UHGV virus genome: UHGV-0256895
Strand: one strand, 5' to 3'
Length of the DNA: 18,404 nt
From: a virus
The position numbers and the translations under genes are program-made. How positions within the stretch are numbered: position 1 is the stretch's first letter; every line of letters begins with the position of its first letter. This document shows positions 395 to 18,404 of the stretch, piece by piece. The notes below the pieces were generated by a model that was not told the DNA's origin, made no database searches, and saw nothing but the letters and a program-made list of their open reading frames with translations.

Positions 395-876
395 GACAGC
401 AGCCCTCCCACCGTTTTACTGATATCGCTTAAGGCAGACGTTGCCGTGTCCTGCAGATTATTCAGTTGCGCACTGAGATCACCGAACATATCGGACAGGG
501 ATTCATCCACCCGTTTGAGCGACAGGGTGAACTCAATCCGGCGCGGCATACCGTCGCGGAAAAACTCCGTTTTAGTCTGATTCAGTCCCTCAATCACATA
601 CATGCCGTAAATCGTGCCGCTGCCTTCAATCAGGGGCCATGCTTTCCCCTGTTCTGCCATCTGCTCCAGTACCAGCAACGACAGCCTGCCGCCTGTTATC
701 TCCGGCATAAGAACACCAGAAAGCGTCAGCATGTCGTTGTCCGGTCCCAGAAACTGCGTGGACGGACGTCGGTTGACCCGGCTGTTTGCCGCATGTCGCC
801 AGCTGCGTTGATACTGCAGTTCCTGATACGGCACAGTGCGCAGCATAAACACGTACAATCCCAGCACCATCATCAT
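391..876 (-). CDS. U: Tail protein gpU
   Basis: 161 aa ORF in the track, immediately downstream of the tape measure gene in the conserved FETUD order; size matches P2 gpU. Confidence 0.8.
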   Translation of the reverse strand: MMMVLGLYVFMLRTVPYQELQYQRSWRHAANSRVNRRPSTQFLGPDNDMLTLSGVLMPEITGGRLSLLVLEQMAEQGKAWPLIEGSGTIYGMYVIEGLNQTKTEFFRDGMPRRIEFTLSLKRVDESLSDMFGDLSAQLNNLQDTATSALSDISKTVGGLLS

Positions 877-3800
877 GCGTCGTATCCCCCCTGATCGCTG
901 TAGTTACTCCTGGCTTTTGCCTTCAGCCTGCGTTCACGTTCATCAAGCTGGCGTGCCACCTCCCGCGCAATATCCTGCGCACTTTGTCCTGGCTGCGTCT
1001 GGATGATGATCTGCGTCGGTGCCTCAATCCGTTGAGCGGGCGGCACAGTGGCTGCACGACTCACCATCGCTTCGCCGCCTTTCGCGGGAAGTGCCAAAGG
1101 ATGTAACGGCGGAAGCTCTGCAGGCGCGGCAGCAACGCCCATCATTCCGGCAACAACGGCAGCCAGTGCAGCTGTATTTCTCCGACTGGTCACGTTTGCC
1201 GGACCGTTGACAATTTCAGGCCCGTTTTCACCGACAATGCCGAACTGCCCGCGCGGGATATAGCCGCCGCTGTCATACATCCCCGCAAAGCCATATCCCC
1301 ATGACGGAAAACCACCCGATGGCATCATCACTTTACCGTCTGCATTCACCGTCGCAGGTTGCTGACGCGTCACGCTTTCCGGCAGTTTCGCCTTTGCAGC
1401 CTCTTTACTGACAATACCGAGTTTCTCCAGCAACCAGGAAACGCCGGATTTCAGGGAGTCCAACGGATGCATGACCATATTCAGCCCTTCCGCCAGTGCC
1501 TCCCCGAATCGTCGCCCCATTGCCGCTGCGCTCTGCAGTTCGGCAGAGGTCGACTTAACAGGCGTCAGCAGATCAGTAAACCAGCCCCACAACGCCTGTA
1601 CTTTGTCGCCAATCCACTGGAACACGGGCTTAAGCGGTTCGAATGCAGCACTGATGGGACCTGCCGCCGCTTTGAATCCTTCCACCACGCCACCGAGAAA
1701 TGCGGTGATGGGTTGCCAGTATTTCCAGACAACCAGCGCCACGCCCGCCAGTGCAGTAACCACAAGACCTATCGGACTGAGCAGAGCACCTAACAGACCA
1801 GATACGGCATACAGGGCAACGCGCAGCATCGCCAGCGGACCGGATGCCAGCACACGCAGCACCGCGCCTGCGGCAGCCAGTCCACCGCGTAGTGCTGCCA
1901 GTGGATTCATAAACATCACAGCAACCGCACGTAAACCGGATAATCCAGACCGCAACAGTGCAACCGGCACACCTGCTACAGTTTTCAGGACATTCCCCGT
2001 CAGTGATGCGGTGCGGCGCAAAGACGACAACGGCGCAGTAAGTAAACCCGCTGCGTTGCCCGATGAAGCAAGCCCGCGTCGCAGCAGTGCCAGTGGAGCG
2101 CCAGCTAACCAGGACAACGCGCTGCTGGTTCGTGTTACTGCTGCCGTAACGGAAGGTAACGTTTTGATACCCAGCACAGAGAATCCCAGACGGATGACTG
2201 CCAGCGGCCCCAGCACTGCAGCCAGCGCCACCGCTAAGGTGCCGAGGCCTACGGTAACCGCAGCCACAACAGCCGCTACTTTCATCAGTGTGCCTGTCAG
2301 TTCCGGGTTAGCTTCCACCCAGCGGCGCAACGCCCCCGTGATGCTTTTTACCGTGTACAGAATATCCATCAGCGGCTGGCGCAGCGTTTCGCCCAGGCTG
2401 CTGAAGGTGTTCTGCGCTCCGGTTTTGACCAGCAACCACTGAGCGGAAAGTGAGTCTTTGTTGATGTCGGATTCTTTCTGCATGGAACCGAGCGCATCAT
2501 TGCCCGCTGTCAGTTTTAGCTGGCGCTGCAGTTCCGGAAGGTTGTTTGCCAGTTTCGCTGCATCATCACCAAACTCTTTACCAAACAACATGGTCATGGC
2601 AGACAGACGCTTGTCCTGCGGCAGTGCGTTCACCTTCTCCAGCACACGCTGGATAGTTCCCATCGCATCCTTCGTCATCTGCTTTTCAATCACTTCAGGA
2701 TTGAGTTTCAGCAGATTCATCCCTTCAAAGAAACTCTTACTTTGCATGGTGGCAATGGACAATTCACGCACCATCGCGTTTGCTGCACTGGCAGCAACCT
2801 CCGGCGCAGCGCCCAGTGTCAGGAAGGTGGAACCCAGCGCCGCCGCTTTACGATAATCCAGACGATCTGCCACACCGCCCAGGCGTTGCATGACATCAAT
2901 GATGTCTGCCCCTTTCGACATGGCGTTATCATCCAGATAGTTCAGCGCATCACCGAGCTGTTCAATATTGCGGGTAGGGATTTTGTAGAGCTGGGCGATT
3001 TTCCCCAGACTTTCTGACAGTTCATCCGCTGGCAGCTCAAAGGCTGTTGCCGCCTTTGCTGCCGTGCTGGCGAAGGCCAGCAGGTCACGTTTCTGGTCTT
3101 CCCAGCTGTCGTCAGGATTTGCGACGTTCATGCGCGCACCACCTTCAACCAGTGCGGCAAAGTCCACAGCACCGTTTTCCATCGGCAACTGTTCGCTGGC
3201 AGCCTTGATGGCATCCTGCATTTCGTAAAAACGCGCAGTGCGGTTGCCATTATCATCACGCAGACCATTGACCTGCTTTGCCACACCTTTCATGGCATCT
3301 TCCATGCTGGTATAGCTTTTTACTGCTGCCATCACTGGCGCACCCATTGCCAGCCCTGCAGCCGTGGTAGTGGCTCCGGCTCCTGCGATGCGATCGCGCA
3401 CTTCAAGCCGTCTTGAGTATTGTTCTCTGGCAGCGTTCATCCGTGCCTGTTGTTCACCCAGACGTTTAAGTGCTTTTTGCTGGCCCTCCAGTGCCTGCCT
3501 TGTTTCTTCAGCATTTTTCTTAAGTTCTCGCTGGGCACTACTGAGTTGTCTGGTATCAATCCCTGATTCTTTAAGTGCCTGACGTTGTCTCTGGACCGCC
3601 CCCAACAAGCCGTTATAGGTCTGCTGAAGTTCCTGTACTCGTGTTTTGGCCTGACTGAATAACTTTGCCTGCGCGGCGGTTGGCCTGTTAGTGGCAGCAA
3701 ATTGTGTGGCGAGTTTTGCCGCCTCTTCGCGGGCTGCGTTCAGGTTGTTGGCTGTTATGGCTAGTTGCGAGCGCGTCTTGCGAAATTCATCAATTCTGCC

Positions 3801-3950
3801 AGCCTGCTTATTCAGTTCTTTGAGGCTGTTTCGGGTATTCTGAATTGCGCCAGCCAGCTCTTTCGAACTGGCCTGTGCAACACGGAATGGGCGGGTGAGT
3901 TTGTCAACCGCATTAAGAATGACCTGCAGCCGCAGGTTGTTATCACTCAT
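873..3950 (-). CDS. T: Tail tape measure protein gpT
   Basis: 1025 aa ORF; N-terminal coiled-coil-like Q/A/K/E/R-rich region, central Ala/Gly/Leu-rich hydrophobic repeats, C-terminal domain; position between E/E' and U. Confidence 0.9.
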   Translation of the reverse strand: MSDNNLRLQVILNAVDKLTRPFRVAQASSKELAGAIQNTRNSLKELNKQAGRIDEFRKTRSQLAITANNLNAAREEAAKLATQFAATNRPTAAQAKLFSQAKTRVQELQQTYNGLLGAVQRQRQALKESGIDTRQLSSAQRELKKNAEETRQALEGQQKALKRLGEQQARMNAAREQYSRRLEVRDRIAGAGATTTAAGLAMGAPVMAAVKSYTSMEDAMKGVAKQVNGLRDDNGNRTARFYEMQDAIKAASEQLPMENGAVDFAALVEGGARMNVANPDDSWEDQKRDLLAFASTAAKAATAFELPADELSESLGKIAQLYKIPTRNIEQLGDALNYLDDNAMSKGADIIDVMQRLGGVADRLDYRKAAALGSTFLTLGAAPEVAASAANAMVRELSIATMQSKSFFEGMNLLKLNPEVIEKQMTKDAMGTIQRVLEKVNALPQDKRLSAMTMLFGKEFGDDAAKLANNLPELQRQLKLTAGNDALGSMQKESDINKDSLSAQWLLVKTGAQNTFSSLGETLRQPLMDILYTVKSITGALRRWVEANPELTGTLMKVAAVVAAVTVGLGTLAVALAAVLGPLAVIRLGFSVLGIKTLPSVTAAVTRTSSALSWLAGAPLALLRRGLASSGNAAGLLTAPLSSLRRTASLTGNVLKTVAGVPVALLRSGLSGLRAVAVMFMNPLAALRGGLAAAGAVLRVLASGPLAMLRVALYAVSGLLGALLSPIGLVVTALAGVALVVWKYWQPITAFLGGVVEGFKAAAGPISAAFEPLKPVFQWIGDKVQALWGWFTDLLTPVKSTSAELQSAAAMGRRFGEALAEGLNMVMHPLDSLKSGVSWLLEKLGIVSKEAAKAKLPESVTRQQPATVNADGKVMMPSGGFPSWGYGFAGMYDSGGYIPRGQFGIVGENGPEIVNGPANVTSRRNTAALAAVVAGMMGVAAAPAELPPLHPLALPAKGGEAMVSRAATVPPAQRIEAPTQIIIQTQPGQSAQDIAREVARQLDERERRLKAKARSNYSDQGGYDA

Positions 3951-4379
3951 CGTTGGCCCCGCTTCTCTGAATCGCTTTATACCGCCATTCCAGCACTTCG
4001 GTCAGCGGCATAACGTCAGTAACGGATGGCGGCCAGTGAAAGATGGTGGCGATATCAGCCACCAGATCGTCAACCGTCAGGCTGTCGGTAAACCGGCAAG
4101 CACCGACTTCTTCAACAAAAAAGTGACAACCTCAACCGACATGGCAGTGAGATCTGCCGGGTCCATCTCTGCAATTTCCTGTGCAGTCAGTGCCGGACTG
4201 GAGATACGGGGGATCACGGTCATCATCGCGTTCACATCCATATCCATAATGGCCTGCAGGCGTGTACCGCGCAGCGCACCGGACTGCGGTTTACGCAGCA
4301 CAATTTCGGTGATTTCTGTTTTACCGCGCTTGATGGGGGTATCCAGTTGAATAGTCTTTTCAGTCTGCTTATCGCTCAT
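3943..4379 (-). CDS. E': gpE+E' fusion made by a programmed -1 ribosomal frameshift
   Basis: From the heptamer at 4122..4116 the -1 frame stays open for 57 codons (VEEVGACRFTDSLTVDDLVADIATIFHWPPSVTDVMPLTEVLEWRYKAIQRSGANDE) and stops at 3945..3943, overlapping the T start codon (ATGAGTGA). Confidence 0.65.
4077..4379 (-). CDS. E: Tail assembly chaperone gpE (zero-frame product)
   Basis: 100 aa ORF directly upstream of the tape measure gene; ends ...VEVVTFLLKKSVLAGLPTA with a T-run slippery site near its 3' end. Confidence 0.8.
   Translation of the reverse strand: MSDKQTEKTIQLDTPIKRGKTEITEIVLRKPQSGALRGTRLQAIMDMDVNAMMTVIPRISSPALTAQEIAEMDPADLTAMSVEVVTFLLKKSVLAGLPTA
4116..4122 (-). other. Slippery heptamer T_TTT_TTG for the E/E' -1 frameshift
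   Basis: Minus strand reads act ttt ttg ttg in the E frame; T TTT TTG fits the X_XXY_YYZ pattern, lies 13 codons before the E stop, and the -1 frame downstream is open to the T start. Confidence 0.6.
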
Positions 4380-4433
4380 TTTGCTGTCCTGTAAATTGGG
4401 TTCTGGCGCGGTATCCCGCGCCGTTCAGATACA

Positions 4434-4949
4434 TCAGAGGCCGAGGGCGTTGCGGTGCGCTTCCATCAGGTCCACACCGTCCACAATTTCCACCATGTTG
4501 ATAAGGTCCACTTCATAGAGCACCTCACCATTGATGGTCAGCTTCGCGTAGCTGTTGGTACTGGTCACTTTGGTGGTGTTGCTTTCGCCCGTCTTCCACT
4601 CGCCGGAATCCACTTCTTTGTGACGTCCACGCACCACAAGCTCCACGGCCTGCACTTCCCCGGTATCGTCACGCTGGATAGAGCCGGTAAAGCGCAGCTG
4701 AATGCCATCTACCGTGGCTTTGCCCATCTGCTTAAACAGCAGCAGTTCAGTACCACCAATGGAAAATTCTGTGTCCAGCGCACTGTCATCAAGCCCCAGA
4801 TCCACATCCACTGCACCCGGCATTCCGCCGCCGCGATACTTCTCATATTTGCGGGTGAATTTCGGCAGCGTCAGCGACTCAACGATCCCCTGCCAGTTGT
4901 TCCCGTCGTTAAACAGGTTCAGATGTTTTAATTTGCGTGGTAAAGCCAT
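4434..4949 (-). CDS. FII: Tail tube protein gpFII
   Basis: 171 aa ORF (MALPRKLKHLNLFNDGNNWQGIVESLTLPKF...), between sheath and E; size and sequence consistent with P2 FII. Confidence 0.9.
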   Translation of the reverse strand: MALPRKLKHLNLFNDGNNWQGIVESLTLPKFTRKYEKYRGGGMPGAVDVDLGLDDSALDTEFSIGGTELLLFKQMGKATVDGIQLRFTGSIQRDDTGEVQAVELVVRGRHKEVDSGEWKTGESNTTKVTSTNSYAKLTINGEVLYEVDLINMVEIVDGVDLMEAHRNALGL

Positions 4950-5235
4950 GTTGTCCCCTTACGCGCTGACCTGGCTGGCGAAATTCACCAGGTACTGATC
5001 GGTGATGCGCTGGCGCAGCATCAGATTTTCAAGTGGCGGCACTGGCGTGTAGTCATAGTCGATGGTGAGTTTTCCGGCTTTCAGCGTGTCTTTGTCGTTC
5101 ACCGACTCATCCAGCCAGCAATCACCACCAATGAGATAGCCCTGACTGACCAGGCTGCGTATTTTGGCGCGGATACCTTCGATAATGTCGCGGGCCAGCG
5201 ACGGGTTAAGCGGTTTATCCACCGCCCACATGTGT

Positions 5236-5315
5236 GCTTCTGCCATTGTGTCCGTCAGCACCTGCGCCGTGCGGGTGTAGTTTTCGAAGGCAAAAAGCGG
5301 ATCATCGCTCAGACA
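5236..5315. repeat. Left copy of a perfect 80 bp inverted repeat inside FI (native-orientation copy)
   Basis: Plus 5236..5315 is the exact reverse complement of 5518..5597 (checked base by base, 80/80); encodes [27 protein letters not shown] in the minus-strand sheath frame. Confidence 0.9.
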
Positions 5316-5517
5316 TGCACTTGGTCTGCGTGCCAAAATTGATGAGCAGACCGGGTGGCACAAAAGCCTGTCCAACGTGGGCGTGAACGGTGTCACCGGA
5401 ATTTCTGCAGATGTGTTCTGGGATCTGCAGGACCCGGCAACCGATGCAGGTCTGCTGAACCAGAACGACGTCACCACGCTTGTGCGTAAAGACGGTTTCC
5501 GCTTCTGGGGTTCCCGC

Positions 5518-5597
5518 TGTCTGAGCGATGATCCGCTTTTTGCCTTCGAAAACTACACCCGCACGGCGCAGGTGCTGACGGACACAATGGCAGAAGC
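5518..5597. repeat. Right copy of the perfect 80 bp inverted repeat inside FI (inverted copy)
   Basis: Reverse complement of 5236..5315; encodes the same 26 residues on the plus strand, continuous with the inverted segment 5317..5517. Confidence 0.9.
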
Positions 5598-6248
5598 GTG
5601 TCCCAGCCAGTAAAGTCGGGCCAGATCAGCATTCCTTCGCGCTGGCTGAAGTTTTCACGGTAAGTGATCGCCTCCTGTACCGTCTTGCAGCCATACGCTG
5701 ACAGGTAAGCAAACCCACGCAGGCTTTGCGCCACGCTCAGCAACTCAGTCGCAACGGCTTTGTTATCGTGACCTGGCACGCCGAGAATGCGCGGTTTAAC
5801 GCCGAGCTGTGACTGGGCAGATAACAGAGCTTTCATGCCTGTTTTTTTACCTTCAGCAGTCACTGCGCCGATGATATTGGTCGTGGTTTCTTCTTCCGTT
5901 TCACCCTGCGGCACACGCACAACAACGGTCACGGGTTTTGCCTGGTCAGCGATGGCATCCAGCGAACGGGCCAGCGTGCCGGACTCACCCGCTTTACCGC
6001 TGGCAGTCAGCACATCAGTGATCAGCACAGGTTTGTTAAGAGGAAACATTTTTGCATCGGCATCATCGCCCGTGCAGACCATGCCCACGATGGCGGTGCT
6101 CACCGTGGTAATGGATCGGGTGCCTTCGTTGACTTCAACAACGCGCACCCCGTGGTGGTAATCCTGAGCCATAGTGGCGAACCTCCTGATTGGATTAGGC
6201 TTCGCCCTATGTTGAAGTGATTGTGCCTGACAAACAGCTAAGCGCAGT

Positions 6249-6266
6249 TGTACCGTTATTCACACA
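6249..6266 (-). promoter_or_regulatory. Candidate Ogr-type late promoter element (TGT-N12-ACA) for the FI-FII-E-T-U-D operon
   Basis: TGTACCGTTATTCACACA, centred about 85 bp upstream of the FI start codon (6172); P2 late promoters carry this dyad near -55. The motif alone is expected by chance a few times in 18 kb; position is what supports it. Confidence 0.4.
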
Positions 6267-6314: not shown

Positions 6315-6887
6315 TCAGGGGGATTCATTACTCTTATTTGCCGGAAATTTTCTATAAATTGTGGAAACACCCACATCAAAAATCAGTGCAATACGCTGTC
6401 TTGATTCTCCGGCCTCGAGTAAACGCCCAATCTGTGCCCACTGTTCGGTGGTCAACTTAGGACGGCGTCCACCTACTCTGCCTTTGGCACGAGCTGCAGC
6501 CAGCCCTGCCCTGGTACGTTCAACTATCAGTTCGCGTTCCATTTCAGCCAGGGCACCCATGACATGAAAAAAGAAACGGCCCATTGGGGTACTGGTATCA
6601 ATACTGTCAGTCAGGCTTCGGAAATTCACACCACGCTGGCGCAACTCCTCTATCAGCGTAACAAGATGCCGCATACTGCGCCCCAACCTGTCCAGCTTCC
6701 AGACAACCAGCGTGTCTCCTGCCGATAGTGTCCTGAGCAGCTTTTTCAGCCCCGGTCTGTCGGACTTAGTGCCACTGATTTTATCCTCAAAAATCCGCTC
6801 ACATCCCGCGCAGTTCAGTGCATTACGTTGCAAATCGGTGTTCTGGTCATTTGTTGACACGCGTACATAGCCAATAAGCATGATCAT
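6315..6887 (-). CDS. Serine DNA invertase of the Gin/Pin/Cin/Hin family
   Basis: 190 aa ORF starting M(IM)LIGYVRVSTNDQNTDLQRNAL..., the characteristic N-terminal catalytic motif of the invertase subfamily of serine recombinases, with a C-terminal HTH-like region; true start may be the third Met (6881). Located beside an invertible tail-fibre segment. Confidence 0.85.
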   Translation of the reverse strand: MIMLIGYVRVSTNDQNTDLQRNALNCAGCERIFEDKISGTKSDRPGLKKLLRTLSAGDTLVVWKLDRLGRSMRHLVTLIEELRQRGVNFRSLTDSIDTSTPMGRFFFHVMGALAEMERELIVERTRAGLAAARAKGRVGGRRPKLTTEQWAQIGRLLEAGESRQRIALIFDVGVSTIYRKFPANKSNESP

Positions 6888-6936
6888 CCCCCTGAATAAA
6901 AACCGGAGATGATGCCAGTTAGCCGTTATCTCTGCA

Positions 6937-6962
6937 TTTTCATAAACGTTGGTTTGGGAGAG
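6937..6962. other. Invertase crossover site 1 (gix/hix-like, 26 bp)
   Basis: TTTTCATAAACG TT GGTTTGGGAGAG: two AAAC/GGTTT half-sites around a central dinucleotide as in hixL/gix; sits between the invertase start and the silent tail-fibre segment; matches site 2 at 19 of 26 positions in inverted orientation. Confidence 0.6.
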
Positions 6963-7298
6963 GGAGCAAAATTAGGCGCAGCGGTGTGTGTGGCCGGCTC
7001 TACAGGCTATATGACTATCCCGGCAATGGTCGCCGGGAAAGAACGGGTGATCATATTGCAGTGGTTTGGTGCTGCTACAACTGATTATGTGACACCAGTA
7101 ACTGCGAATTTCCCTATTGCATTCCCAAATGAGTGCATGATTCCGTTATTTAGTGATGTATCAACTGGGGCAGTTGATTTGAGTTCTACAGCCGCATATA
7201 GCTTAGCGGTGGGCCGATCATACTATACGACGGTAACAAGAACTCAGATTACATGTGCTGGCTACGGTGGCTTTAGAGTTTTCGCGATTGGATGGTGA
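6951..7298 (+). CDS. Silent alternative tail-fibre C-terminal segment (Sv'), no start of its own; would fuse to the constant part of H after inversion
   Basis: Plus frame from the crossover core gives [69 protein letters not shown]...GFRVFAIGW, sharing ILQW, FPIAFP and GGF..FA.G motifs with the expressed H C-terminus. The track ORF 6909..7298 covers it. Confidence 0.6.
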
Positions 7299-7303
7299 TT
7301 AAT

Positions 7304-7723
7304 ATGTTTTATTCTGCAAAAGAAAATGCGTTCTACGCTGATGAGCTAAAAAGTATTTATGAAAATGCAGGTAGCTGGCCTGACGATGCCGTTGAAGTAG
7401 ACTATTCCGTATTCGTTGAGTTTGCCGGAGAATCACCTAACGGAAAATTACGCGCTCCTAATTCTGATGGTTTACCTGAATGGATAGATATTCCCGAACC
7501 AACTGAAGAGGAAATTATTGCGTTGGCAGAAGCCGAAAAATCGCGACTGCGTGCTTCAGCTGACTCTGAAATAGAATGGCGGCAGGACGCCGTTGATGCG
7601 GGGATCGCGACGGAAGAAGAAACTGTTTCATTAGCCGAATGGAAAAAATACCGGGTGCTGCTGATGCGAGTTGATACAGCAGACCCGGACTGGCCTACTC
7701 CTCCGGCGACTCAGGCCAGTTGA
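7304..7723 (+). CDS. Alternative tail fibre assembly protein (Tfa, U'-like), silent orientation
   Basis: [28 protein letters not shown]... parallels the N-terminus of the expressed Tfa ([30 protein letters not shown]...); lies directly after the silent fibre segment. Track ORF starts 4 codons earlier at 7292. Confidence 0.7.
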
Positions 7724-8126
7724 TATCTGGTGCGCTGGATATGTCCACAGATTCCAGCGCATCGAGATAATCCAGCCACTCGTTATACTGGGCCTTCTCG
7801 TCGTCTGTAAGTCGCCCCAGCGCAGCTTTACCCGGCCACTGCTTGCTGTTTATATACTCATTAGCCTGATCGATACGATACTGTTTTTCAGCTTCAGCTG
7901 CTGCGATTTCCTCCTCATGGCTTAAAGGTGGAATGTCTACCCATGCCGGCATTCCATCCTCAGTAGCTCCACGAGTTTTACCCTCTGGTGGCATCCCCGA
8001 ATATTCAGTGAATGTCTCATCTGAGACGGCTATGAGATCGTCAGGCCAGTTTCTACTCGCTTCATAAACATCTCTGAGCTCATCAGGGTAGAAAGCGTTA
8101 TTTAATGCTGAATAAAAATAAGCCAT
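7695..8126 (-). CDS. G: Tail fibre assembly protein (Tfa, gpG / Mu U-like), expressed orientation
   Basis: 143 aa ORF immediately downstream of the tail fibre gene; Tfa-like N-terminus; converges on the alternative Tfa with a 29 bp 3' overlap. Confidence 0.75.
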
Positions 8127-12015: not shown

Positions 12016-12033
12016 TGTGTGGTAAATGACACA
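12016..12033 (-). promoter_or_regulatory. Candidate late-promoter dyad (TGT-N12-ACA) upstream of V
   Basis: TGTGTGGTAAATGACACA, centred about 55 bp upstream of the V start codon, which leaves almost no leader if the P2 geometry holds; overlaps the putative promoter and 5' end of the opposite-strand cargo ORF. Motif alone is weak evidence. Confidence 0.3.
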
Positions 12034-15475: not shown

Positions 15476-16068
15476 TCAGCGGCTATCATTGCGCAGTCTG
15501 CGCTCCAGCTGCTGTTTGTCTTTTTTCACGCCACAGCGGGGATCGAGCTGTAACGCATGGTTGAGATGATTAAGGGCGGAAGCCGGATTACTTTCACTCA
15601 GGACAGCGCCAATCGCTTTATGCAGACGCGCCCGTGACTGGTCCGGCATATCCAGACCGTCTGTCAGCTCCAGCGTCTGCAGCAGCAGATCGACATCAAA
15701 GCCGGTAGTGGCAAGCATTGCGCTCTGCGCTGCGTCTGCCATTTCCTCTGCCAGCACGGTCTGCACGTTGCGGTTACCCAGCGGCATCACCCAGCCATGA
15801 CGCAGGGCATGACGCCCGATCTCCAGCGCTCCGACATAATCTCCGGCATCAATGCGCCACAGCATCACGTACATCAGCACGTCATCCTGTTGAGCGCCTC
15901 CGGCAGCCAGGACACCCTCCGCCCAGGCGGCGTATTTCGGCAGCAGCTCCACCTTGATTTCCGCTTTTTTGACCGTGGACTGAACGCCCTTGAGACGGCG
16001 GCGGTCTTCTGCCAGTTGCAGCAGCATCAGGTCATAGCCCGACGCGTGGCGAACGCTGCGCGCTGCTG
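15476..16068 (-). pseudogene. M: Terminase small (endonuclease) subunit gpM body; first 18 codons are separated from it by the N/M inversion
   Basis: Minus frame ..SAARSVRHASGYDLMLLQLAEDRRRLKGVQSTVKKAEIKVELLPKY.. is gpM-like from 16068 down to the stop at 15476 but has an in-frame stop just upstream of 16069; the native start (MSLSPARQHRLRVQAECQ) lies on the plus strand at 16276..16329. The track ORF starts at the internal Met 16027. Confidence 0.7.
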
Positions 16069-17921: not shown

Positions 17922-18404
17922 ATGCAGCTCACCACCGCCGCCCGCTACTGCCAGCTCATTATGAAGGAGCACAAAGAAGGGAAAGATTTCAAAGAAATTG
18001 ACCTGCTGGCGCGCCAGTCGGAGCGCCACGCGCGGATCGGCAAGTTTAACAATGGCGGCAACGAAGCCGACTTAAACCCTAACGTCGCCAACCGCAACAA
18101 AGGGCCGCGCCGTCAGCCGGAAAAGAATGTTTTCACCGATGAACAGATTGAGAAGCTGGAAGAAATCTTCCATTCCTCCATGTTCAACTACCAGCGCCAC
18201 TGGTGGGAAGCCGGAAAAACCAATCGCATCCGCAACCTGCTGAAGTCTCGCCAGATCGGCGCGACCTTTTACTTTGCCCGTGAAGCCCTGATTGACGCCC
18301 TGCTGACCGGACGTAACCAGATTTTCCTTTCCGCCAGTAAGGCACAGGCCCACGTCTTTAAGCAGTACATCATCGACTTCGCCAAAGAAGTCGAGGTGGA
18401 GCTG
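17922..18404 (+). CDS. P: Terminase large (ATPase) subunit gpP, N-terminal part; runs off the window edge
   Basis: Plus frame open from 17856 to the window end; first ATG 17922 ([20 protein letters not shown]...); contains a Walker-A-like ..[40 protein letters not shown].. Not in the track because it lacks a stop in the window. Confidence 0.75.

Follow-up and report, generated by a model that had tools for sequence, protein, structure and literature searches.

We analysed an 18,404-nt stretch of viral DNA (UHGV virus genome UHGV-0256895), referred to here as the window. It covers the late region of a P2-like phage (Peduoviridae, Elveevirus) that is nearly identical to Escherichia phage Cartapus and carries its structural genes on the minus strand. 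Past the tail tube gene FII, the gene order is E, E′, T and U, and a GC-rich inverted repeat lies in the spacer between FII and E. The features relevant to this junction are the following:

6249–6266: TGT-N12-ACA dyad 5′ of the sheath gene FI, likely the Ogr/B-type activator site of the late promoter that drives FI-FII-E-T-U-D
4434–4949, minus strand: FII, major tail tube protein of 171 amino acids (Pfam Phage_tube, 8.8e-60; Cartapus CARTA_25), with its stop codon UGA at 4436–4434
4380–4433, minus strand: FII–E intercistronic spacer of 54 nt, consisting of 11 nt between the FII stop and the hairpin, the hairpin itself, and 25 nt between the hairpin end and the E start codon that include the E Shine-Dalgarno sequence
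4405–4422, minus strand: stem-loop with the RNA sequence GGCGCGG-GAUA-CCGCGCC, seven G-C or C-G pairs and a 4-nt loop (5′ arm 4422–4416, loop 4415–4412, 3′ arm 4411–4405)
4387–4390, minus strand: Shine-Dalgarno sequence AGGA of E, 7 nt 5′ of the AUG, read from the sequence
4077–4379, minus strand: E, tail assembly chaperone of 100 amino acids (Pfam Phage_TAC_7, 1e-18; Cartapus CARTA_26), with its AUG at 4379–4377
3943–4062: E′, placed from the Cartapus annotation
873–3950: T, tape measure

On the coding strand the spacer reads UGA-uguaucugaac-GGCGCGG-gaua-CCGCGCC-agaacccaauuuacAGGAcagcaaa-AUG, and the plus strand at 4405–4422 is GGCGCGG-TATC-CCGCGCC. A preliminary description of this hairpin, made from the window alone, had given its coordinates, its 7-bp stem, its 4-nt loop and the 54-nt gap, all of them exactly, and was also right that no U-tract follows the stem. 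RNA folding of the junction, which it had put forward as a check, gave the hairpin in both the minimum free energy and the centroid structures computed with RNAfold. By itself the hairpin has a folding energy of about −15 kcal/mol. The Shine-Dalgarno sequence of E lies outside the hairpin and is not sequestered, remaining unpaired in the minimum free energy fold that contains the hairpin. A covariance model of the element (R1) had a single match in the window, namely the hairpin itself (4398–4429, minus strand), with a score of 37.5 bits on the sense strand versus 16.8 bits on the antisense strand. No curated Rfam family matched at or above its gathering score; the two matches seen were at chance level, one of 15.4 bits (gathering score 35) and one of 13.4 bits (gathering score 40).

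A canonical intrinsic terminator consists of a GC-rich hairpin that is directly followed by a U-rich tract of about 7–9 nt. The window hairpin resembles canonical Rho-independent terminators, such as that of P2 for ogr and the F operon (NC_001895, 24265–24288), in being a GC-rich hairpin with a short loop just past a stop codon. By contrast, the RNA that follows its stem, AGAACCCAAUUUACA, contains no U-tract (T-score 0.02), the hairpin lies within an operon that has essential distal genes, and it was not called by a consensus terminator scan of the window. Because the U-tract is missing, the window hairpin is not a canonical intrinsic terminator, and this absence counts against efficient intrinsic termination in this phage.

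Taken alone, the window makes the hairpin just marginally unusual, and it is the comparative data that decide. Several numbers would suit a GC-rich palindrome that arose by chance and has no function. The whole window contains 11 perfect stems of 7 bp or more, compared with 8.1 ± 3.5 in dinucleotide shuffles, which is the level expected by chance, and an all-GC perfect 7-bp stem appeared somewhere in 18 of 60 shuffles of the window (30%). The folding energy of the 101-nt junction also did not differ significantly from that of shuffled sequences (z = −0.48), because the signal is a local hairpin. Within the 54-nt spacer such a structure is rarer: of 20,000 dinucleotide shuffles of the spacer, 0.5% had perfect pairing over 7 bp or more, and in 0.03% such a stem was all GC.

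Close relatives showed that the stem is fixed while the loop is free. The preliminary description had named a lack of conservation in related phages as the observation that would refute its interpretation; instead, all 14 stem bases were invariant across the 22 junction haplotypes found in 80 IMG/VR contigs whose FII is 99–100% identical. The loops of these contigs were GATA, AATG, GATT or AATA, and several flank positions varied as well. This pattern shows that the stem is under purifying selection. The free variation of the loop even among near-identical phages also led us to reject a boxB/nut-type antitermination hairpin, in which an N-like protein recognises a conserved loop sequence.

Further evidence for selection on pairing came from the Fels-2/Elveevirus clade, defined by an FII identity of at least 81%, for which the 21 sequences whose loop is 4 nt long were aligned with MAFFT; the alignment has no gaps. 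The seven core pairs were paired in 21 of 21 sequences, a percentage that is inflated by selection because the sequences had been centred beforehand on the detected hairpin; changes on both sides of a pair are unaffected by this centring. The covariation score of the alignment was 0.168, compared with 0.079 in shuffles (0 of 500 reached 0.168), and all slid controls scored lower. The clade contains 14 distinct stems, with compensatory double changes at five of the seven stem positions. The base of the stem (GG…CC) was invariant and served to anchor the numbering. Position 3 alternates between C-G and U-A, position 4 between G-C and A-U (12 sequences), position 5 between C-G and G-C (11 sequences) and position 6 between G-C and C-G. 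Three pair types, G-C, C-G and G·U, are found at position 7. Of two further outer pairs, which are optional, one also switches between C-G, U-A and U·G and the other between C-G and A-U. Loops across the clade include GAUA, AAUG, GAUU, GCAG, UGAU and UUUU, among others. Two other alignments were set aside: a MAFFT alignment with coding flanks (A3) placed Pantoea-type stems out of register, and a covariance-model alignment (A6), which included antisense and weak in-gene matches and missed most alleles with a 5-nt loop, was excluded from the pair counts. Across clades, RNAalifold gave no usable consensus, and the stems could not be placed in one register. Since the stems of distant clades share no common register, the evidence there is recurrence rather than covariation.

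This recurrence was extensive. In a divergent sample of 15 Peduoviridae phages, with FII identity down to 37%, a GC-rich hairpin was located directly 3′ of the tube stop codon in 13 (Fels-2, KPC3phi13.6, ENT90, PSP3, phiCTX, P2, RsoM1USA, P88, Smp131, phi52237, PHL101, Kp4852-2 and 3LV2017), and the stem sequences were unrelated. A hairpin is also present in YenM_42.18 once the start of E is corrected. A scan of one genome per species, which used eight FII sequences (an alignment of 15 FII sequences was too diverse), added 80 more prophage loci from many genera with FII identities of 61–100%. In all, 84 distinct FII–E spacers from P2-like phages and prophages were scored for a compact stem, meaning 7 bp or more of perfect pairing capped by a 3–8-nt loop. 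Of these, 63% contained one. The two controls gave 1.74% for dinucleotide-shuffled spacers (n = 16,800) and 0.70% for equal-length windows of the upstream coding sequence (n = 4,445), an enrichment at the junction of about 36-fold over shuffles and up to 90-fold across the controls. This compact-stem measure replaced the energy of the best hairpin, a metric that permits bulges, because GC-rich coding windows also score well on the latter: the median energy was −14.8 kcal/mol in the spacers, compared with −7.1 in shuffled and −9.4 in coding sequence, and 31% of coding windows likewise lay at or below −12 kcal/mol. The stems of the family are 92% GC and 7–9 bp long in 53 relatives. They start at a median of 8 nt past the tube stop codon (interquartile range 6–11) and end at a median of 28 nt before the start of E (interquartile range 25–30). 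The commonest spacer class among the relatives is 52–57 nt, with the same layout as in the window.

Weak matches to R1 also occurred about 48–92 nt into FII in loci L104–L127 and L082 (locus positions 949–993 and 749–793, respectively), with 13–18 bits and E values of 0.025–0.76. These matches, within the 5′ portion of the FII reading frame, carry a large loop insertion and are seen in many relatives; they are probably a coincidence of the coding sequence.

The U-tract was more variable than the hairpin. At least five T residues in the 9 nt after the stem were found in 13 of 53 family hairpins. A U-tract is present in phiCTX, PHL101 and the Shewanella, Serratia and L148/L149 prophages, and is absent from Cartapus, KPC3phi13.6 and phi52237. 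That the U-tract comes and goes while the hairpin persists fits a function that rests on the stem itself.

The hairpin was absent from a set of Xenorhabdus/Photorhabdus loci (L150, L152–L159, L166 and L172), which have AT-rich spacers of 31–46 nt, and from a Tatumella locus (L124). Because some relatives do without it, the hairpin is dispensable in some contexts. These short-spacer loci may perhaps be tailocin clusters (xenorhabdicin-type) with other expression needs. Other Xenorhabdus loci (L171, L174, L175 and L177) have long spacers with a hairpin. In the Mannheimia phage PHL101 (L093), the depositors annotated a promoter within the tube–chaperone spacer (1245–1272), which overlaps or just follows a hairpin with a UUUU tail that resembles a genuine intrinsic terminator. 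The distal tail genes of this lineage may be re-initiated instead of being read through.

Taken together, the conserved stem, its covariation and its enrichment at the junction across the family refute the idea that the palindrome is a functionless accident, which has thereby become extremely improbable. What this analysis adds, as judged from the comparative sequence data, is that the hairpin appears to be a family-wide element kept by compensatory change.

We considered whether the conserved feature could act in DNA rather than in the late transcript, as a palindromic protein-binding site, a cruciform or a terminator of antisense transcription entering the late operon. A perfect Watson–Crick palindrome such as that in the window is equally stable on either strand, and our strand tests, which compared sense with antisense energies and counted G·U against A·C pairs (15 to 9, P = 0.31), did not significantly favour a sense RNA over DNA or an antisense RNA. 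Tail composition served as a further strand test, which A-rich stop codons located within the 9 nt upstream confounded. However, in other clades the stem has been replaced by sequences unrelated to it, with its dyad symmetry preserved and the loop still free to vary, and a dyad that is kept while its sequence is swapped is the signature of a structure and not of a recognition site. In addition, the strong hairpins of 186, PSP3, YenM_42.18, P88 and the L130 locus include G·U pairs, which would be mismatches on the opposite strand or in DNA; the R1 score was higher for the sense strand of the window; and no promoter-like site faces the hairpin from downstream. An element acting at the DNA level is therefore very unlikely.

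A counterpart of the hairpin has been annotated in phage 186. The RefSeq record of 186 (NC_001317) describes positions 15906–15932 as "terminator tI; partial terminator of pJ transcript". This element sits between gene I, which encodes the tube and is the homologue of P2 FII, and gene H, the homologue of P2 E. It consists of a 9-bp stem, CCGGUCAGC-acu-GCUGGCCGG, with one U·G pair, followed by UUAUUACCCCC. This hairpin recurs unchanged in PSP3 and in slightly altered form in P2; the hairpin is not annotated in the P2 reference record or in the Cartapus record. When aligned by sequence alone with MAFFT, the hairpins of the window, Fels-2, KPC3phi13.6, P2, 186 and PSP3 fell in the same columns, with spacers of similar length. 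Like tI, the window hairpin lies at the tube–chaperone position on the coding strand of the late tail operon, upstream of essential tail genes that need read-through, and it has a GC-rich stem that starts 11 nt past the stop codon (8 nt in 186) in a spacer of 54 nt (61 nt in 186). Unlike tI, it has an unrelated stem (GGCGCGG…CCGCGCC, 7 bp instead of 9 bp), and its tail is AGAACCCA where that of 186 is UUAUUA. MAFFT recovered traces of shared flank motifs; the stems could not be aligned in one register. Judged by position, the window element would be the Elveevirus/Felsduovirus counterpart of the partial terminator tI.

Whether the genes past the hairpin have a promoter of their own bears on how it could act. 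By analogy with the sites annotated upstream of P2 FI and of 186 pJ, the dyad at 6249–6266 is likely to be the activator site of the late promoter. A scan for TGT-N12-ACA found no such dyad between FII and E; the nearest were this site and one at 4898–4915, which lies within FII and is too distant from E. We also found no sigma-70-like site between FII and E. An internal late promoter in the spacer was thus rejected. Because this interval has neither an activator dyad nor a promoter, E, E′, T, U and D, which are essential, depend on transcription through the hairpin, and any stop there must be leaky. Further dyads are present at 12016–12033 (5′ of the V baseplate operon) and 18128–18145 (capsid region). 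Together with 6249–6266 they are likely the late promoters PF, PV and PO, an assignment made by position only, as the total of seven TGT-N12-ACA dyads in the window is not above chance (4.5 ± 2.1).

The P2 virion contains 192 sheath subunits and a matching number of tube subunits, but 6 copies of gpU and 3 of gpD (bioRxiv 10.64898/2026.09.14.750843). The position of the hairpin is the boundary at which this drop in copy number occurs in P2.

These observations suggest that the hairpin is a leaky element at which transcript 3′ ends form, by acting as an exonuclease barrier, a weak terminator or both, so that sheath and tube mRNA is kept above the mRNA of the chaperone, tape measure and baseplate hub. 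We give this reading a probability of roughly 65%. The stem-loop would form in the late transcript of the tail operon as soon as the ribosome has left FII, and a fraction of transcripts would end at the hairpin, either through weak termination or through exonuclease stopping. Read-through RNA that has been cleaved would be degraded by 3′→5′ exonucleases (PNPase and RNase II) back to the stem, where they would be halted. As a result, the FI–FII segment, encoding the sheath and tube proteins needed at about 190 copies each per virion, would accumulate over the E/E′-T-U-D segment, encoding the chaperone, the tape measure, the six gpU and the three gpD. That 3′ ends form here, by which route and with what effect on protein ratios, we infer from sequence. 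The preliminary description had proposed a role in RNA processing or stability, or an attenuator that sets the ratio of tube to chaperone; the conserved stem, its compensatory changes and the presence of tI at the same junction in 186 support that proposal in kind.

For the allele in the window, the exonuclease-barrier route is the more probable one, because the tail is nearly free of U, the terminator score is low and the stem is kept while the U-tract varies. On a rough score of the d'Aubenton-Carafa type, the window hairpin scored −35, 186 tI −16, P2 −11.5 and phiCTX +21, and just 4 of 64 family hairpins scored above 0. Given this score, the lack of a U-tract and the failure of the terminator scan to call the hairpin, intrinsic termination at the window allele may be negligible.

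Intercistronic hairpins that stabilise mRNA are known from the Rhodobacter capsulatus pufBA|LMX, the E. coli malE-malF REP and the papB-papA systems, and such hairpins need the stem alone, as a barrier to 3′ exonucleases. Like these elements, the window hairpin is a stable stem-loop between high-copy proximal and low-copy distal cistrons; it is located 3′ of the more highly expressed cistron, and its stem is kept while the U-tract is variable or absent, as expected of an exonuclease barrier. Unlike REP-type elements, it is unrepeated and unique in the window, and a REP reading was therefore rejected. Leaky terminators also follow major structural genes in other phages, including T7 T-phi after gene 10 and the terminator after gene VIII of filamentous phages. 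The similarity to the window hairpin is that a leaky stop past the gene for the most abundant structural protein leads to less of the later products, although T-phi and the gene VIII terminator have U-tracts and measured termination efficiencies, unlike the window hairpin. An RNase III site was ruled out: such a site needs about two helical turns, or roughly 20 bp of double-stranded RNA, and the stem is 7 bp here. Literature searches for P2 and 186 transcript data, for Peduoviridae or P2-like tail-operon transcriptomes, for segmental mRNA stability and for the R-pyocin PA0622/PA0623 terminators returned nothing relevant, and the genome papers of Smp131 and of the Burkholderia and Mannheimia phages do not discuss a hairpin between FII and E.

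The hairpin could instead protect the RNA that follows it. The 5′ stem-loop of ompA protects that mRNA from 5′-end-dependent attack by RNase E, and after endonucleolytic cleavage a short way upstream the FII–E hairpin, then at the 5′ end of the E-T-U-D RNA, might likewise shield that RNA and raise distal expression. The fairly constant distance between the hairpin and the start of E and the conservation of the stem alone, with no requirement for a U-tract, are in keeping with such a role. However, the distance of the hairpin from the FII stop codon is at least as constrained, and the stoichiometry of the virion calls for less distal product, not more. The relatives with a U-tract (phiCTX, PHL101, Shewanella and Serratia) and the annotation of 186 point to the formation of 3′ ends. 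We consider protection of the distal RNA unlikely.

A translational role was also considered, in which the stem would insulate initiation at E from ribosomes terminating at FII, by preventing their re-initiation or sliding, or would be part of a standby site, and so set the rate of E translation. The stem starts 5–11 nt past the stop codon, inside the footprint of a ribosome terminating there or at its margin, and the length of the spacer is tightly conserved at about 54 nt. Against this, the Shine-Dalgarno sequence (4390–4387) and the AUG of E are both outside the stem and unpaired in the fold, and no conserved loop or flank sequence hints at a specific interaction. Such a role is thus quite improbable; like protection from the 5′ end, it fits the relatives with a U-tract, the 186 annotation and the stoichiometry less well than 3′-end formation does.

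The formation of 3′ ends at the hairpin might in addition be gated by the ribosome. A ribosome terminating at FII would cover the 5′ arm, and formation of the stem, together with any pausing, termination or exonuclease blocking that it causes, would then track the coupling of translation to transcription. We regard this elaboration as doubtful. If it were true, the ratio of sheath and tube to chaperone and tape measure would be linked to the state of translation in the infected cell, and the hairpin would represent a Peduoviridae-wide design for tail stoichiometry that needs no canonical terminator and is kept by compensatory evolution.

Several other features of the window were recorded. A T_TTT_TTG heptamer at 4116–4122 (minus strand), in the zero frame of E and about 40 nt before its stop codon, matches the −1 frameshift site expected to produce E+E′. 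A second perfect 7-bp hairpin, TGGTGGC-GATATCA-GCCACCA, lies at 4044–4064, just 3′ of the E stop codon and inside E′; at about 55 nt from the slippery site, it is too distant for classical stimulation of frameshifting. FI, the sheath gene, is disrupted and split into two open reading frames (4959–5477 and 5471–6172). Relative to Cartapus, a 282-bp segment of FI (5316–5597) is inverted, so that one 80-bp stretch is present in two inverted copies (5236–5315 and 5518–5597), and about 32 bp are missing. Searches of 5,426 complete E. coli genomes and 50,697 phage records gave no other example of this arrangement, which looks like either an assembly artefact of the foldback type or a rearrangement that is unique. 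The window departs from the Cartapus record from about position 6971 onwards. A Gin/Hin-type DNA invertase gene (6315–6887; Resolvase, 2.3e-53) adjoins oppositely oriented tail-fibre-assembly open reading frames in the 6315–8126 region, which suggests an invertible host-range segment.

In practical terms, the hairpin is a feature to annotate in P2-like prophages and in the clusters of R-type tailocins, and one to consider when those operons are re-engineered. The current understanding of the field is unchanged by it. For the biology of the family, the proposed 3′-end formation outlines how one late promoter may yield about 190 copies each of the sheath and tube proteins but few copies of the proteins encoded downstream, and a feature that had been annotated once, in phage 186, is shown to be a family-wide element maintained by compensatory evolution.
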